Made by a program: the position numbers and the translations under genes
Notes under the pieces: generated by a model
The model's database searches: none
What the model saw: only the letters and a program-made list of their open reading frames with translations
Told to the model about the DNA's origin: nothing
Assembly: GCF_053078305.1 (NCBI RefSeq)
Contig: NZ_CP166879.1
Reading direction: 5' to 3' (one strand)
Length of the DNA stretch: 64,000 nt
In this document: positions 2,719 to 61,323 of the stretch, piece by piece
How positions within the stretch are numbered: the first letter of the stretch is position 1
Layout of the letters: every line of letters begins with the position of its first letter

Positions 2719-2900
2719 ATTATCTCCCTCAGGAACAACAAAGAAGTTCACATATACAGAACCAGCTTTGTCTACATACCCGGAATTCAGTAAAGAAACA
2801 TAATCTATAAGACTTACTCACTTTAACAAAACAACATTCCTGGATAAAATAATATCCGATGAAATAATCTCCGCATAAATACATGAGGCTGCCATGACAC

Positions 2901-3005
2901 GCAACGCAACGCAACGCAACGCAACGCAACGCAACGCAACGCAACGCAACGCAACGCAACGCAACGCAACGCAACGCAACGCAACGCAACGCAACGCAAC
3001 GCAAC
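2901..3005. repeat. perfect pentanucleotide tract (GCAAC)x21
   Basis: 21 uninterrupted GCAAC units read directly at 2901-3005 (a degenerate unit precedes at 2896-2900); lies 64 bp upstream of the mod ATG. Confidence 0.95.
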
Positions 3006-3068: not shown

Positions 3069-5105
3069 ATGAATATACGCAACAATCATCTACCGGGAAC
3101 AGAAACTCTTTTTTCTGAAACTGAAACTGCGAACAGTAAACAACTTGCTGTTTTGAAAACTAACTTTCCACAGTGTTTCGATAAAAACGGAGCTTTCATT
3201 CAGGAAAAGCTGCTTGAGATCATCAGAGCATCAAATGTTGAAATCTCTAAAGAGTCATACTGCTTAAACTGGCTTGGCAAATCCTATGCTCGCCTGCTGG
3301 CTAACCTACCACCAACGACATTGCTGTCAGAAGATAAAGACCATAACCGACGTGAAGAGAACAAGAACAGTCAAAATCTGTTAATCAAAGGGGATAACCT
3401 TGAGGTATTAAAGCATATGGTTAATGCTTATTCTGAAAAGGTTAAAATGATTTATATCGATCCGCCATATAACACGGGTTCTGATGGGTTCGCCTATAAT
3501 GATGATCGCAAATTTACACCAGAACAGCTTTCTGATCTGGCGGGTATCGATCTTGATGAGGCTAAACGTATACTTGAATTTACCACGAATGGTTCAAGCA
3601 GCCATAGCGCATGGTTAACGTTCATTTATCCTCGTTTATATATTGCTCGTGAGCTTCTACGTGAAGATGGTGTGATATTTATTTCGATTGACGAAAATGA
3701 ATTAAATCAACTTAAAACTATTTGTGATGAAATTTTTGGCGAAGCAAATTTCATAGAAAATATTGTATGGAATAAACGTATCCCTAAAAATGATAAGGGT
3801 ATTGGTAATATCCATGAGTACATCCTTGCTTATGCGAAGAATAACGAAATAAGTAAAGAATTTTTAATGCGGAAAGATGGTATTGATGATGTATATCAGT
3901 TTATTGAAAAGTTAAAAAAGGAAAAGGTGCCATTAGATAAAGCAGAGCAGCAACTCAAAAAATTCTACAGCTCCAACGGATATGATCGTGGAATTACTCT
4001 TTACAACGGTTTGAACGAGGATTATAGGCCATGGGGTAAAATTAATATGAGTTGGCCTAATGCAGATTCATTTGGACCCACGTATGAAGTATTGCACCCT
4101 TTGACTAATAACCCTGTCAAAATCCCAGACAGAGGCTGGCGTTGGAAAGAAGGCACTTTTAATCATATTGCAAAAAGAATAGATGGAAAGTATGCAGATA
4201 TCAAAAAACTACATGATGGTAGCGTTATTTGTGGTGGAATTTGGTTTGCCCGTACAGAAAAAACCCAACCCAGTTCGGTTAAATTTTTAGATGAAGTTGA
4301 AGAGTTTTTACTAAGATCAATTATTTCAACTAAAAGTGATGGTGGTGTTGAGGTTGAAAATCTTTTTGGTGGGAAAGGATATTTCTCCTACCCGAAGCCA
4401 ACAAGTTTAATAAAAACACTATTTGGTTCAGTAAGAACCGAAGATAAAGACATTTATCTTGACTTTTTTGCTGGCTCTGGAACTACAGCTCATGGTATTC
4501 TGGAGTTAAATATTGAAGACGGCAGGAAAAGAAACTTCATCTGTGTTCAATTAGATGAAGAAACAGATAAAAAGAAACAAGCCTATAAAGAAGGGTATAA
4601 ATCCATCTTCAATATAACAAAAGACAGAATTATTAAGGCAGGAAAAAAGCTGAAAAAAGATAATCCTAATTATAATGGAGATTTGGGATTTAAAATATTT
4701 GAAACAGTTCATGATTTTCGAGCGAAAGATGAGTCTGAACTTACGCTTTCTAATCTTAGTTTCTTTGACGATGCTGTATTGACACCAGAGCAGTATGACA
4801 CTCTATTGACGACATGGTGCGTGTATGATGGCAGCTTGCTAACAACACCAATTGAAGATATTGACCTTAATGGCTACAAAGCACACTTGTGCGATGGTCG
4901 GCTATATCTAATTGCGCCTAATTTCACAAGTGAGGCTTTGAAAGCTTTACTTCAAAAGCTGGATGCAGACAAAGACTTTGCCCCTAACAAAGTTGTATTT
5001 TATGGCAGCAACTTCGAAAGTGCGAAACAGATGGAACTCAATGAAGCACTAAAAAGTTATGCTAATAAAAAATCTATTGATTTAGATTTGGTGGTAAGGA
5101 ACTAA
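3069..5105 (+). CDS. mod: type III restriction-modification DNA methyltransferase (Mod), N6-adenine
   Basis: 678 aa; IYIDPPYNTG (DPPY catalytic motif) and FFAGSGTTAHG (AdoMet-binding FxGxG); GGAGG RBS 6 nt upstream of ATG 3069; res follows directly. Confidence 0.9.
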   Translation: MNIRNNHLPGTETLFSETETANSKQLAVLKTNFPQCFDKNGAFIQEKLLEIIRASNVEISKESYCLNWLGKSYARLLANLPPTTLLSEDKDHNRREENKNSQNLLIKGDNLEVLKHMVNAYSEKVKMIYIDPPYNTGSDGFAYNDDRKFTPEQLSDLAGIDLDEAKRILEFTTNGSSSHSAWLTFIYPRLYIARELLREDGVIFISIDENELNQLKTICDEIFGEANFIENIVWNKRIPKNDKGIGNIHEYILAYAKNNEISKEFLMRKDGIDDVYQFIEKLKKEKVPLDKAEQQLKKFYSSNGYDRGITLYNGLNEDYRPWGKINMSWPNADSFGPTYEVLHPLTNNPVKIPDRGWRWKEGTFNHIAKRIDGKYADIKKLHDGSVICGGIWFARTEKTQPSSVKFLDEVEEFLLRSIISTKSDGGVEVENLFGGKGYFSYPKPTSLIKTLFGSVRTEDKDIYLDFFAGSGTTAHGILELNIEDGRKRNFICVQLDEETDKKKQAYKEGYKSIFNITKDRIIKAGKKLKKDNPNYNGDLGFKIFETVHDFRAKDESELTLSNLSFFDDAVLTPEQYDTLLTTWCVYDGSLLTTPIEDIDLNGYKAHLCDGRLYLIAPNFTSEALKALLQKLDADKDFAPNKVVFYGSNFESAKQMELNEALKSYANKKSIDLDLVVRN

Positions 5106-14257: not shown

Positions 14258-14509
14258 AAACACCGGCGCAAAAACACGGTGCAGTAAGTAAAAGAAAAAC
14301 CGTTACGGGAGCAAAACAGCCATCATTGCAAAATGGCAGTTGCATCGCTCACGATTTGACATCCTTCCTGTGACTGACTGGCATCCTGCCCGTCAGTCTG
14401 CGTCGGAAAATTCAATACAGGCCTGCTTCAGGAGCCCGGCTATACGTTGATTCAGACATTCCGTCCAGCCATCGTTCCATCCACGCTCCCATGGATTGCA
14501 GACATCCTC

Positions 14510-14872
14510 CTATGGATTGCAGACATCGTTACAGCCATTCTTCCATGTCTTCCATGCCTCCATCTCCATGACAGCCCCCAGCCTGTGGCCTTTCACACGT
14601 ATATGCCACAGAAACGGCCGGAAAAGTCCTGATTTCAGTTGGTCACCACCGCTTTTGTAGCCCAGATGACATGCAACACTTTCAGTATATTCAAATGCAT
14701 CATTCTGCATTCCAGCCGCCTTAGCCAGCGAGCTGTACGCATCACGAAGTATCGTCATACCTTCCAGTTGATACTCACACCACGCACGGACAGCCGACAC
14801 TGGTGCGATTACCCGAAGAATGGTGCAGGGACGCCATACAACAATGTAAAGGAGTATTAACAGACTATGCAT
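14510..14872 (-). CDS. hypothetical protein (weak call)
   Basis: 120-aa ORF preceded by palindrome GGGAACACAC...GTGTTCCC (14900-14933); no family recognised. Confidence 0.25.
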   Translation of the reverse strand: MHSLLILLYIVVWRPCTILRVIAPVSAVRAWCEYQLEGMTILRDAYSSLAKAAGMQNDAFEYTESVACHLGYKSGGDQLKSGLFRPFLWHIRVKGHRLGAVMEMEAWKTWKNGCNDVCNP

Positions 14873-15293: not shown

Positions 15294-15378
15294 TCGCCGG
15301 AAAAAAGAAGAGATGCCCGGTTCAGGGCACAAAATAAACGTTGACATAAAGACTCCTGTAAAAAAACGGGAGCCTTCG

Positions 15379-15406
15379 CCCCGACGGACAAAAACTCCCG
15401 TCAGGG
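15379..15406. promoter_or_regulatory. palindromic element, family B (CCCCGACGG-ACAAAAACT-CCCGTCAGGG)
   Basis: read directly; same architecture as 14228-14257. Confidence 0.45.
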
Positions 15407-15450: not shown

Positions 15451-15706
15451 CCGTTAATAAAGGGCGCAGTTATAAAGAAACCTTCATCGTCATGACTGAC
15501 GATATCTGCTCTCAAAGGTGGGCAGATTTACCACCACCAGAAACATCCTGGCTGCACATCCCCTTTCAGGTTACGGGGGTGTTGATCACCCGAAGGCGTT
15601 CCTCTCAGATCAACGGAACATTGGTGCCCACCGAAGCGGGATGTGGTCACCCGAAGGCGCTCCTCTCAGACCACTTATGGAGCATTGGTGGTCGCCGAAG
15701 CGACAT
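15451..15706. repeat. direct repeat copy 1 (~255 bp) flanking the recombinase cassette
   Basis: near-identical to 17784..18037 by eye; contains tandem ~63-bp hairpin units. Confidence 0.85.
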
Positions 15707-15770
15707 GTAGCCACCCGAAGGCGCTCCTCTCAGGCCACTTGTGGAGCATTGGTGGTCGCCGGAGCGACAT
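15581..15770. repeat. tandem array of three ~63-bp structured units
   Basis: units begin at about 15581, 15643 and 15707; each opens with a 6-7 bp stem (TTGATC/GATCAA; TGGTC/GACCA) around the conserved loop ACCCGAAGGCG(C/T)TCCTCTCA. Confidence 0.8.
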
Positions 15771-15812
15771 ATAAGCCTGTATATTTTTAAATCACAAAAG
15801 ATGAATGTCAAG

Positions 15813-16136
15813 TTATTCAACATCAATCCAAAGAGGAATATTATGTATTCCCTTAACGGGTTCTCCCAGAGGAAAAACACAGGTCCCTTTAATCAGTATT
15901 TTTCTTCCCGACCATCTGACATCACAGTTAAAATCTCCCACCACATCAAAATAATCCGCAATGGATTCATAGATGTCCCATTCATCATAGATATCCCATT
16001 TATCTGCTGTTCCTTCACATTCAAACTCGGCCTGATATCCGGAATCAACATATCGCGCCAGATAGTGTGACCACAAAGGCGAATTTTTTGTAATCTCTTT
16101 TACAGAGATTATTTTCAGCAAAATAGTACAATCCAT
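15813..16136 (-). CDS. hypothetical protein downstream of recombinase
   Basis: 107-aa ORF, AT-rich, acidic; no family recognised. Confidence 0.35.
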   Translation of the reverse strand: MDCTILLKIISVKEITKNSPLWSHYLARYVDSGYQAEFECEGTADKWDIYDEWDIYESIADYFDVVGDFNCDVRWSGRKILIKGTCVFPLGEPVKGIHNIPLWIDVE

Positions 16137-16168
16137 AATATTTACCCGTACGAAATCGCCATGAGTTA

Positions 16169-17071
16169 TTACTCATAGCCTAACAACTGACAATAAACCT
16201 GTTCAATATATCGTCCTCTGCCATCACCATGACCAAGATCAATTGATGTCAGTGCAAGTGCCTCCTTATAACTGTAACCGTTCATAATATGATATTTCAT
16301 GGCACTTGCAGCGTAACTGTACCGAAAACTGTGTGCAGTCTCATCTCTGCCTTTCAGTTCTCCATAACGACGTAATGTATTAAGATAATAATCCATTGCC
16401 GACTTAAGATTATCTCTGTCTATAAGACGTCCATTATGTTCACTGGCATATTTGAGTGCATAATTAACAGCATCAAGAACGTTATCCCGGTCAACAACCG
16501 TTGTCATTCTTTCCCGTCCCCCTTTCGTACCAAAAATCACTCTTATTTTTTCATCTCCCCGTTGTAACGCTTTTTTCCAGGTTCGTAATGATTTGGCCGA
16601 CTGGATAGCTTCTTCATTTCTCAGACCGAGGTAACGTGACAGTTTAACAACAGCAGCCACCCCTTTATCTTTTGCTTCCACACGCTGAAGAATCTCCCGA
16701 AAACGCTCATCCGTGATTAATTTTTTTGTTCCCTTACGACTGGAGCCGGAAATGCCTAACGCTTTATTGCTGAGACGAGGATGTTCGGGATCAGCCATCT
16801 TATATTTACCTGCCTGACGTAACATAACCCGTATTGCAGACATTTCATTTTCCCTTGTTCGCCCAGAAACATTATTCCGGCTTCTCATATATAGCTCAAT
16901 ATGCCGGACTTTTACCTGCGCGGCAGAACTGATCTGTACATTCATTTTTGCCAGACTTTCAGCAAAGCGGTGCATGATCCTGGTGTAATCACTCAGCTTC
17001 TTGAAGCTGCCTTTGTCTTTTCGAATGTGAGCAACCAGATCCTGTTTCAGTAATTTTTCACGTCTGGACAT
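16169..17071 (-). CDS. tyrosine site-specific recombinase (phage-integrase family, ~300 aa)
   Basis: C-terminal catalytic signature HSFRYSYA ... LGHGDGRGRY (HxxR ... Y) and box-I-like RYLGLRNEE; ORF starts with GTG at 17086, ATG at 17071 has an AGGAG RBS. Confidence 0.85.
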   Translation of the reverse strand: MSRREKLLKQDLVAHIRKDKGSFKKLSDYTRIMHRFAESLAKMNVQISSAAQVKVRHIELYMRSRNNVSGRTRENEMSAIRVMLRQAGKYKMADPEHPRLSNKALGISGSSRKGTKKLITDERFREILQRVEAKDKGVAAVVKLSRYLGLRNEEAIQSAKSLRTWKKALQRGDEKIRVIFGTKGGRERMTTVVDRDNVLDAVNYALKYASEHNGRLIDRDNLKSAMDYYLNTLRRYGELKGRDETAHSFRYSYAASAMKYHIMNGYSYKEALALTSIDLGHGDGRGRYIEQVYCQLLGYE

Positions 17072-17120
17072 CAACTTCTCCTGCACATAATAATTTTTAC
17101 CTTAAACAGCTGTACGTTCG

Positions 17121-17171
17121 GCAGATGAGTTTTTCTGTTGTGCCGTGAACACAACAGAAAAACTCATCTGC
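17121..17171. promoter_or_regulatory. 22-bp perfect inverted repeat upstream of recombinase gene
   Basis: GCAGATGAGTTTTTCTGTTGTG - CCGTGAA - CACAACAGAAAAACTCATCTGC, 50-100 bp upstream of start 17071. Confidence 0.5.
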
Positions 17172-17783
17172 ATTTCTCCCTGACGACACGGTTAAACGTT
17201 GCGATCCTTCGGGTAGTGACTGCCTGTGCGCCAGGGTAGCGCAGATTGTTTAGGTATTGAGGGGTAACAAATCGGTGTTGCACACCGACTGCAGCATTTG
17301 CTGTACCTGTCTCCAGGTCGCCCCCGACACCACCTCTAATAAGTGGTATCGCCGATTCGGCATCTCACTACATAAAACTCCTTAAAAAAACAATTGATTC
17401 TGCAAAAAACCATTTATGGACGTTATTCACAAAATCGTCCGTAAATTTGCAGAAGAGGTTGAAAAAACACTCTCACGCCGGGTCACTTCTTCAAATGTTA
17501 AAAAACATCACGTGAAACGGCAGTTCGTGCGGGTTCGTTAAGCAGACGCGCGTGCGTCACTTTGTCATCGTGACACGCTGACGAAAGTGACGCCGCGCAG
17601 CTTCAGACGCCAGATACACGCGTAAGCGACCAAATTTCAAATGGTCTTATACAGCGCGCACAGTCGCAGGAAGTGCTGGCAAACAAATGAAAAGAATAAA
17701 AGAAGTCAATACCGCCATTACGCAGTAAGAACATTCCGGCATCACCGGATGGATAAGGATCACACAACCACTGCTGTGTATTG

Positions 17784-18037
17784 CCCGTAATAAAGGGCGC
17801 GGTTAAAAGAAACCTTCATCGTCATGACTGACGATATCTGCTCTCAAAGGTGGGCAGATTTACCACCACCAGAAACATCCTGGCTGCACATCCCCTTTCA
17901 GGTTACGGGGGTGTTGATCACCCGAAGGCGTTCCTCTCAGATCAACGGAACATTGGTGCCCACCGAAGCGGGATGTGGTCACCCGAAGGCGCTCCTCTCA
18001 GACCACTTATGGAGCATTGGTGGTCGCCGAAACGACA
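17784..18037. repeat. direct repeat copy 2 (~255 bp) with two tandem ~63-bp units (17913-18037)
   Basis: near-identical to 15451..15706. Confidence 0.85.
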
Positions 18038-18385
18038 GATAATGTATTCTGAGCATATCAGAGCGCATAAAAGGCGTCAATTATCCATGCTCCCTCACGA
18101 AACAGAAGCTGAACTCTTAACACCTGCTATCGGAACTCACTGAATAAACAACTAAAAAGGACATTGTGAAAATTAACATCAACAGTATGTAAAGTGATTT
18201 GTTTTGTCTTAAATGGGTGAATGTAAAAAAATATTCTATACAATCCACACATCCTTGTATCATATATCAAGTAAACATCCACAGAGATAACAGCTTATTT
18301 CAAATAAGCAGATTCTGTTTGATACTTCAGAAAAATAGTATATGCTCCTGATTTACTGATGTTATAAGTTATACAGGATAGTTAA

Positions 18386-60861: not shown

Positions 60862-61323
60862 TTACTCCTCCGTTACGGATATTTCAGCTCCCTTTTCAGG
60901 AGCGGTATCCTTCACATCACTGAGACCGGACTGAGTCGCTTCAGAGACCTCTGCCACCTTTCCGGCTGCCTGTGTTTTTACTTCCTCCACGGCATCCTTC
61001 ACCTCGCTGAGCCCGGACTGAGCCGCTTCAGAGACCTCTGCCATCTTTCCGGCTGCCTGTGTTTTCACTTCCTCCACGGCATCCTTCACCTCGCTGAGCC
61101 CGGACTGAGCCGCTTCAGAAACCTCTGCCACTTTTCCGGCAGCCTGCATTTTCACGTCCTCCGCGGCATCCTTCACATCACTGAGTTGAGTCTGCGCAGC
61201 TTCCTTTATATCTGCCGCCTTCTTACTTACATTCTCCTTTGTCGCATCATCACAGCCCGCAACCAGAAATGGTGCGGAAATACATAACGCCAGAATTGTT
61301 TTTTTCAGCATACAATCTCTCAT
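60862..61323 (-). CDS. lipoprotein with 29-residue tandem repeats
   Basis: signal peptide with lipobox LVAGC; about 3.4 copies of AAGK(V/M)AEVSEAAQSGLSEVKDAVEEVKTQ. Confidence 0.6.
   Translation of the reverse strand: MRDCMLKKTILALCISAPFLVAGCDDATKENVSKKAADIKEAAQTQLSDVKDAAEDVKMQAAGKVAEVSEAAQSGLSEVKDAVEEVKTQAAGKMAEVSEAAQSGLSEVKDAVEEVKTQAAGKVAEVSEATQSGLSDVKDTAPEKGAEISVTEE
60909..61200. repeat. 87-bp tandem repeat (~3.4 copies) inside the lipoprotein gene
   Basis: repeat starts read at 60909, 60996, 61083 and 61170 with few substitutions. Confidence 0.85.

Follow-up and report, generated by a model that had tools for sequence, protein, structure and literature searches.

The 64,000-nucleotide stretch of Escherichia coli DNA analyzed here (the window; contig NZ_CP166879.1 of RefSeq assembly GCF_053078305.1) carries a gene for a tyrosine-recombinase-like protein bracketed by two direct repeats, and both repeats are copies of the catalogued structured-RNA motif STAXI. 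We estimate the probability at about one in two that this locus is the MOB_M-type origin of transfer (oriT) and relaxase module of an SPI-7-type integrative and conjugative element (ICE) with a type G mating-pair formation (MPF-G) apparatus, and that STAXI and a second motif, EFASI, are the RNAs of that module. A first-pass annotation, made from the letters of the window, had described the same locus as a tyrosine recombinase cassette between repeats ending in tandem hairpin units, had proposed that these were either structured RNA or a cruciform recombination site, and had found no element it could name that matched the arrangement.

The repeats were identified by comparing the entire window with Rfam at its gathering thresholds, which returned four matches, three of them in the locus and all three of these on the minus strand. 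Two are full-length matches to STAXI (RF01728, gathering score 40.5), one in the right repeat (17872-18037, 91.0 bits) and one in the left (15476-15641, 75.7 bits), and the third is EFASI (RF02957), which is separated by 417 nt from the STAXI repeat that precedes it and by 143 nt from the start codon of the recombinase-like gene that follows. STAXI was published in 2010 as a tandem pseudoknot of two or three repeats found in Enterobacterales near genes for Ssb, topoisomerase, antirestriction proteins and XerDC-type integrases (Weinberg et al., PMC2864571). EFASI is defined as being 'frequently around STAXI and integrases': according to the family description, STAXI is found several hundred bp upstream of it and an integrase gene downstream (Rfam RF02957), exactly its placement here. 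The order STAXI, EFASI, integrase is already described, and the locus is a known kind of element, so the arrangement can be named after all. It differs in nothing essential from the STAXI description: at least two tandem pseudoknot units are present (three canonical units in one array and two in the other), an Integrase_1 gene lies between the copies, genes for ArdC, DUF1281 and an N6-methylase follow downstream, and topB and ssb are found in the same ICE. Beyond that description go the presence of the motif on both sides of the gene, a positioned promoter, a last unit that resembles a terminator, two copies that co-evolve and an 'integrase' that is probably a relaxase, and the EFASI description does not include the extra structured block between STAXI and EFASI (the middle block of Table 1). 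We agree with the earlier exclusion of an integron and of a CRISPR array: the units adjoin one another with no spacers, a pair of attC-like imperfect palindromes is lacking and the protein is not IntI-like by its Pfam matches.

Table 1. Features of the STAXI/EFASI locus and their positions in the window
Feature	Position	Strand	Evidence and remarks
Intrinsic terminator, strong (predicted)	15358..15402	-	17-pair stem and T run; closes the downstream STAXI transcription unit
Downstream STAXI array	15455..15770	-	Consists of the left direct repeat (15455-15705) and, nearest the promoter, a third unit (15707-15752); RF01728, TRF and unit matches
Sigma-70-type promoter of the downstream STAXI array (predicted)	15783..15811	-	TTGACA, 17 nt, AAAAAT; immediately past the small open reading frame's stop codon
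Small acidic open reading frame, 107 aa	15813..16136	-	Lineage-specific insertion that separates the relaxase-like gene from the downstream STAXI; no family match
Integrase_1 (PF12835) as well as Phage_int_SAM_2 protein, 300 aa	16169..17071	-	Pfam 7.9e-55 and 4.9e-22
Perfect 22-bp inverted repeat, 7-nt spacer	17121..17171	-	50 nt upstream of the start codon
EFASI (RF02957)	17214..17371	-	Rfam 53.2 bits against a gathering score of 51.2 (marginal)
Conserved middle block, absent from Rfam	17545..17676	-	Alignment of 10 loci; model R2 gives 135 bits here
Upstream STAXI array (right direct repeat)	17788..18037	-	Repeat search, RF01728 and unit-model matches
Content of the right array		-	Two canonical pseudoknot units; terminal units that are degenerate; terminator-like hairpin at 17817-17836 with a U-rich tract after it
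Sigma-70-type promoter of the upstream STAXI array (predicted)	18052..18080	-	TTGACG, 17 nt, TATGCT, with TG; outside the repeat

A repeat search of the window places the direct repeats at 15455-15705 and 17788-18037, about 250 bp each, with a 232-nt core that is 100% identical between them (15474-15705 and 17806-18037) and an additional 21 nt at 90% identity that extend the repeats to 15455 and 17788. Tandem Repeats Finder (TRF) reports a 64-nt period with 2.9 copies at 15587-15770, and the units in the tandem arrays measure 61-64 nt. A unit-level covariance model locates three units in the left array (15707-15752, 15643-15688 and 15582-15624), two in the right (17975-18020 and 17914-17956) and no further units in the rest of the 64 kb. 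Between the repeats, on the minus strand, are the 300-aa recombinase-like gene, a 107-aa acidic open reading frame (ORF) and about 700 bp that hold no credible ORFs. The repeats, the numbers of units on the two sides and the two reading frames between them are thus as the first-pass annotation had reported them.

Each unit is an H-type pseudoknot. An explicit structure was tested on 23 distinct aligned units from the window and 10 related loci; it combines a 6-bp outer stem with an inner GCC-UUCG-GGU hairpin and with a pseudoknot of 5 bp formed by the segment after CCAAUG and the internal loop. In these units 98.1% of the cells are paired, compensatory changes occur in 10 of the 14 pairs and, for the pseudoknot, in five of five, none of 500 shuffles matches the covariation of the units, and slid controls pair at 25-57%. 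The same holds in 90 further distinct units taken from 80 species-level loci, where the pseudoknot, which is independent of the model used to find them (the inner helix is biased by it), is 97% paired. The paired stem substitutions pointed out earlier are therefore real and general, being those of the outer stem, and the covariation in both sets of units supports the proposal of selection on structure over that of a decaying duplication. What had been called a conserved loop is not a loop, as it contains the inner hairpin and one strand of the pseudoknot, and its variable C/T base is a pseudoknot position that covaries with the upstream GCUCC/GUUCC segment. Because G·U pairs outnumber A·C pairs by 141 to 5 in the 90 units (56 to 5 when the model-biased inner helix is left out), folding is limited to the gene-sense (minus) strand. 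The inner loop reads UUCG in 76 of the 90 units. Folding by minimum free energy was not significant on either strand (z = -1.7 on both), so thermodynamic stability is uninformative here and the evidence for structure is covariation and not energy.

The 80 species-level loci were those encoding homologues of the protein; they were searched with three covariance models, and 78 of them had enough upstream sequence. Upstream of the gene, STAXI was found in 54/78, the middle block in 61/78, the EFASI counterpart (model R3, 218-336 nt upstream of the gene) in 60/78 and all three elements in 47/78, at median distances to the gene start of 847 nt for STAXI, 552 nt for the middle block and 275 nt for EFASI. 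A second STAXI follows the gene in 43 of 74 loci, most often 80-140 nt past the stop codon. All 143 unit matches lie on the gene strand, and 136 of them fall within the upstream and downstream zones. It follows from this survey that the bracket of STAXI, middle block, EFASI, gene and STAXI is an arrangement maintained across Enterobacterales rather than the result of a local duplication; the bracketing noticed in the window is real and evolutionarily conserved. The window itself is 99.7% identical to an E. coli chromosome region annotated as an ICE of the SPI-7 / PFGI-1 / TIGR037xx type, with the order ParA, DnaB-PI, ParB, TopB, Ssb, PilL2, type IV secretion system (T4SS), TraG, cargo, STAXI locus, small ORFs, ArdC, DUF1281 and N6-methylase, all of these genes from ParA to the N6-methylase being on one strand. 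The order STAXI, EFASI, gene, STAXI recurs in four ICEs related to this one, of which a Citrobacter ICE and Salmonella pSGI4 are circular forms. The acidic ORF is confined to some of the E. coli ICEs; for most species the distance of 80-140 nt from the stop codon to the start of the downstream STAXI leaves no room for an ORF. Its position among antirestriction genes makes a role as a DNA mimic conceivable.

One check proposed with the first-pass annotation was whether the repeats always accompany the recombinase, and in cis they do not. STAXI and EFASI also occur where any recombinase gene is absent, in small plasmids and in the tellurite-resistance (TAI) islands of O157 strains. What a TAI island has in common with the window is exactly STAXI, the middle block and EFASI, and these islands have been reported as oriT-only hitchers with an oriT region like that of SGI-4 (bioRxiv 10.64898/2026.01.13.699239). 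Three small plasmids, NZ_CP059920 (3140 bp), NZ_CP100506 and NZ_CP032706, carry STAXI, middle block and EFASI intact and no PF12835 gene; they are three different replicons, and the only part common to the first two is a 938-bp block at 90% identity. Such plasmids may be hitchers of the oriT type. A ColE1-like primer RNA or replication origin was considered for the block, as NZ_CP100506 seemed to have no rep gene, and was rejected: the remainder of that plasmid matches replication-initiator genes of 4-kb Col-type plasmids, the gene crossing the start of the record, and the three plasmids that bear the module are different replicons. A single-strand origin of rolling-circle plasmids was also rejected, except as a part of the ssDNA (single-stranded DNA) idea discussed below; NZ_CP059920 has an HUH Rep, yet its rep lies on the strand opposite to that of the motif, and theta plasmids have the module as well.

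Several lines of evidence suggest that the units act as RNA. Promoters and terminators identified by sequence are predicted for the arrays (Table 1), and the two array promoters are non-homologous to each other and both lie outside the repeat. In most arrays of related loci the -35 box stands at a constant distance from the first unit. In the 80 species-level loci, TTGAC[AGT] precedes the first detected unit by 59-64 nt in 46 of the 104 arrays, where the background is 6%. The last, degenerate unit forms a stem followed by a U-rich tract at its end, as a terminator would. In Pectobacterium, STAXI has been seen by RNA sequencing as small RNAs (sRNAs) of about 228 nt and lies 3' of topB, where it is annotated as the topB 3' untranslated region (UTR), and transcripts of STAXI and EFASI have been detected by reverse-transcription quantitative PCR in vesicles of Shiga toxin-producing E. 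coli (STEC). Because of the positioned promoters, the terminator-like ends, the detected transcripts and the UUCG loops, RNA is favoured over single-stranded DNA (ssDNA). Of the two options offered by the first-pass annotation, structured RNA is accordingly the better one, and a cruciform site is disfavoured by the strand-specific wobble pairs, the promoters and the terminators.

The discoverers of STAXI left the choice between RNA and ssDNA undecided and raised the ssDNA idea themselves (PMC2864571). Applied to the present locus, the idea would be that STAXI, perhaps together with EFASI and the middle block, works in the transferred strand as it folds during conjugation, for example by helping to terminate or recircularise transfer or by priming synthesis of the complementary strand, and that transcription is incidental. 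Strict strand specificity would also be explained by this idea. In its favour, too, the module is located in a relaxase-like gene's oriT region, and it is retained in cis as a whole by oriT-only hitchers and by three small plasmids unrelated to one another; one of these carriers is a rolling-circle plasmid with rep as its only other feature. We nevertheless consider it unlikely, as ssDNA leaves unexplained a sigma-70 -35 box fixed at 59-64 nt from the first unit, arrays with terminator-like ends and the transcripts from Pectobacterium and STEC. The nearly invariant C(UUCG)G loop stabilises RNA and not DNA, DNA would turn the nearly invariant G·U pair into a G·T mismatch, and in the rolling-circle plasmid the motif strand is the one opposite to rep.

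The protein encoded between the two arrays was called a tyrosine recombinase by the first-pass annotation and would be annotated as an integrase; we find it most likely that it is a tyrosine-recombinase-like relaxase of the MOB_M / MpsA family, its putative relaxase activity being read from sequence relationships. It is 52% identical over 295 aa to WP_033567157.1 of SGI-4, one of the seed proteins of the MOB_M profile (bioRxiv 10.64898/2026.01.13.699239). PF12835 serves as the signature of MpsA in a published classifier of genomic islands, and MpsA is the atypical relaxase of the tyrosine recombinase family encoded by Salmonella Genomic Island 1 (SGI1). For direct comparison the SGI1 mobilization region was taken from a metagenome contig found by means of an oriT sequence rebuilt from published primers; searches of the E. 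coli and plasmid collections gave no match to SGI1. For SGI1 MpsA itself, PF12835 is the top-scoring Pfam family (2.1e-10), and the window protein is related to MpsA with a BLASTP value of 2e-5 and an hhalign probability of 87.6%. The 2026 preprint reports that MOB_M relaxases have been systematically missed, are abundant and are associated with MPF-G ICEs, and it puts oriT in the interval that separates the T4SS operon from the relaxase gene (bioRxiv 10.64898/2026.01.13.699239). The SGI-4 type of ICE has the same T4SS type as the ICE studied here, and its non-coding module is likewise located between the T4SS operon and the gene. In its available text the preprint treats the upstream intergenic region as an oriT at the level of DNA, makes no connection to STAXI or EFASI and deduces the activity of the ICE proteins (bioRxiv 10.64898/2026.01.13.699239). 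The recombinase-like protein, the acidic ORF and three flanking ORFs had no match in NCBIfam or PHROGs, and a search of the PDB found no sequence relative. A phage origin was rejected, there being no similarity among 50,697 phage records.

The region between the upstream STAXI and the gene contains two further structures. The middle block has a covarying multi-helix 5' domain and a long hairpin at 17554-17594, whose 9-bp base (GCGTCACTT/AAGTGACGC) is sequence-invariant in 74 sequences while its distal stem covaries; in the block 89.8% of the pairs are formed and 26 of 38 show compensatory changes, the base of helix 8 being invariant. The block lies between the T4SS operon and the relaxase-like gene and is a candidate for the oriT core or for a protein-binding hairpin; it has no sequence in common with the SGI1 oriT. 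The 22-bp inverted repeat stays palindromic through compensatory changes at two positions among E. coli ICEs (the window and loci L002 and L004) and is absent from three loci of Salmonella, Citrobacter and NC22-type elements (L003, L010 and L012). SGI1 has a 9-bp inverted repeat in an analogous position before mpsA.

In the module that we propose, transcription along the minus strand would begin at a sigma-70 promoter and yield a STAXI RNA with two H-type pseudoknot units and a terminator-like terminal unit. This would be followed by the hairpin block with its invariant 9-bp inverted repeat, the likely oriT core, by the EFASI RNA domain, by the 22-bp hairpin and then by a protein of the MOB_M / MpsA family that would nick and pilot DNA rather than integrate it. 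After the small lineage-specific ORF would come a second STAXI gene, independently transcribed and terminated. The STAXI and EFASI RNAs would be components of the relaxosome module that control or assist the relaxase, and both this role and a requirement for RNA in transfer are suggested by analogy with SGI1. In SGI1 a sigma-70 promoter gives a transcript of about 700 nt that has an early terminator-like hairpin, crosses a GC-rich oriT that holds three inverted repeats and stops at a hairpin preceding mpsA; sgm-sRNA, the mature product of its 3' portion, is essential for mobilization and works in trans, not by raising the levels of MpsAB (PMC6414798, PMC9299015). The two systems have the same order of sigma-70 promoter, early terminator-like structure, GC-rich inverted-repeat block, structured RNA domain, hairpin and PF12835 gene; in both the structured RNA domain lies within about 280 nt of the start codon, and the relaxase-like proteins are homologous. 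They differ in that the window protein keeps an N-terminal SAM-like domain, that a second RNA array lies downstream of the gene here, and that the host here is a self-transmissible ICE and SGI1 is a mobilizable island. As a separate observation, within the core of the SGI1 sgm-sRNA (about 3915-3945, minus strand, of our SGI1 locus L095) the sequence ACCAGCCAAUGG matches the most conserved single-stranded segment of STAXI, CCAGCCAAUG, and the core has two C(UUCG)G hairpins; no model scores the core, and the likeness may be due to chance.

A number of points weigh against our interpretation. The homology to MpsA is distant (33% identity over 80 aa), and the relaxase role would depend on this homology and on a preprint's classification, and every catalytic residue of a true recombinase is conserved in the protein, which may therefore have recombination activity. 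Because related ICEs also encode a TraI-domain (MOB_H-like) protein, the PF12835 protein may not be the main relaxase of the ICE. There is no homologue of MpsB; the 107-aa ORF is not MpsB-like and is absent in most species. Neither Rfam at E <= 1 nor our own models with filters off found STAXI, EFASI or the middle block in SGI1, the matches being noise, so RNA homology to SGI1 was rejected; the SGI1 oriT inverted repeat (CGCGCAC...GTGCGCG) is unrelated in sequence to the module here. For these two reasons the parallel between the non-coding parts is one of architecture only. Finally, STAXI also occurs away from PF12835-type genes, for example 3' of topB in Pectobacterium, and its role may therefore be more general than that of a relaxosome cofactor.

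The position of the elements around the gene also brings up a purely cis-regulatory function, in which the stretch from upstream STAXI to EFASI would be a long, structured leader or attenuator that sets the expression of the gene, the downstream STAXI a 3' stabiliser or insulator, and no DNA processing would be involved. The terminator-like end of the upstream array and the location of EFASI and the hairpin directly before the start codon agree with such a function, as do the proposal of the SGI1 authors that the early terminator-like hairpin sets the amount of full-length transcript (PMC6414798, PMC9299015) and the annotation of the Pectobacterium STAXI as a 3' UTR. It is, however, difficult to reconcile with plasmids and islands in which the module is intact, promoter included, and reaches the highest STAXI score (139 bits) where no recombinase gene follows. 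The downstream array moreover has its own promoter, and the SGI1 sRNA acts in trans and not through MpsAB expression. We regard regulation in cis as the whole explanation as rather unlikely.

The two STAXI copies co-evolve within an element: the copies of one element have a mean normalised score of 0.48, against 0.18-0.20 between divergent loci. Because the copies are alike within an element, yet upstream and downstream copies stay distinct in closely related elements, the 232-bp identity in the window reflects recent gene conversion, which homogenised two paralogues of old standing. That identity makes the cassette deletable by recombination between the repeats, and one E. coli genome represents the deleted state: locus L005 (NZ_CP148318.1, 8401-10646) contains exactly the left flank, one repeat and the right flank, an island variant from which the recombinase-like gene, the acidic ORF, EFASI and the middle block are missing. 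This is exactly the product expected on the recombination-site reading of the first-pass annotation, in which a true site-specific recombinase would use the STAXI repeats as its direct sites and the cassette would be excised as a circle or deleted. Co-evolution of the copies is what would be expected of partner sites, and the tyrosine recombinase catalytic residues (R151, K183, H247, R250, H281 and Y288/Y293) are all invariant across 18 homologues. Since the junction in NZ_CP148318 lies inside the 232 bp of perfect identity, however, homologous and site-specific recombination are indistinguishable there, RecA-dependent recombination giving the same product, and the solo-repeat variant was found in one genome against 12 intact ones at a minimum identity (>=) of 98.7%. 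For most elements the normalised score puts the similarity of the two copies at only about 45%, and STAXI has its own promoter and terminator. The ratio of G·U to A·C pairs is incompatible with a duplex or cruciform site that is read on both strands, and the only classic layout of inverted arms with a 6-8-bp spacer is the single-copy 22-bp inverted repeat, which is not STAXI. We consider recombination at the STAXI repeats very unlikely to be their function, and retain the relaxase module as the preferred interpretation of the locus.

Other features of the window were recorded along the way. The gene for a 159-aa hypothetical protein in the near-identical JNEC-KY202 corresponds to 14393-14872 (minus strand), where a premature stop is present in the window and the ORF ends at 14510. 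A strong Rfam match (138.7 bits) identifies the sRNA STnc100 at 852-1054 on the minus strand. Positions 2899-3005 are a perfect pentanucleotide microsatellite, (ACGCA) x 21.4, and 60903-61185 is an 87-bp tandem repeat of 3.3 copies with 91% matches, probably in a coding region.

For the window alone this is an ordinary result, another copy of known motifs. STAXI, since 2010, and EFASI have been catalogued candidate RNAs with no known function, and the adjacent 'integrases' were previously taken at face value. What is new is the link of these two orphan RNA motifs to a tyrosine-recombinase-like relaxase, which makes the function of STAXI testable, together with the recurrent bracket, the strand of the pseudoknot, the predicted promoters at a fixed distance and the terminator-like ends of the arrays, the co-evolving copies and the variant that has lost the cassette. 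SPI-7-type ICEs carry virulence and resistance cargo (a subtilase toxin here, metal resistance in SGI-4), and the tellurite-resistance islands and small plasmids with the same non-coding block are explained as probable hitchers on these ICEs. SGI1 is the only conjugation system known to need an sRNA of its own, and the parallel makes what was a puzzle of annotation approachable by mating assays. A bolder extension, which we hold as doubtful but worth stating, is that MOB_M relaxases are ribonucleoprotein machines whose RNA subunits, the co-evolving STAXI arrays and EFASI, position or recruit the relaxase at oriT or couple it to the T4SS. If this were true, SGI1's sgm-sRNA would exemplify something general instead of being a curiosity, two orphan Rfam motifs would have a function, and an RNA component would be added to bacterial conjugation.

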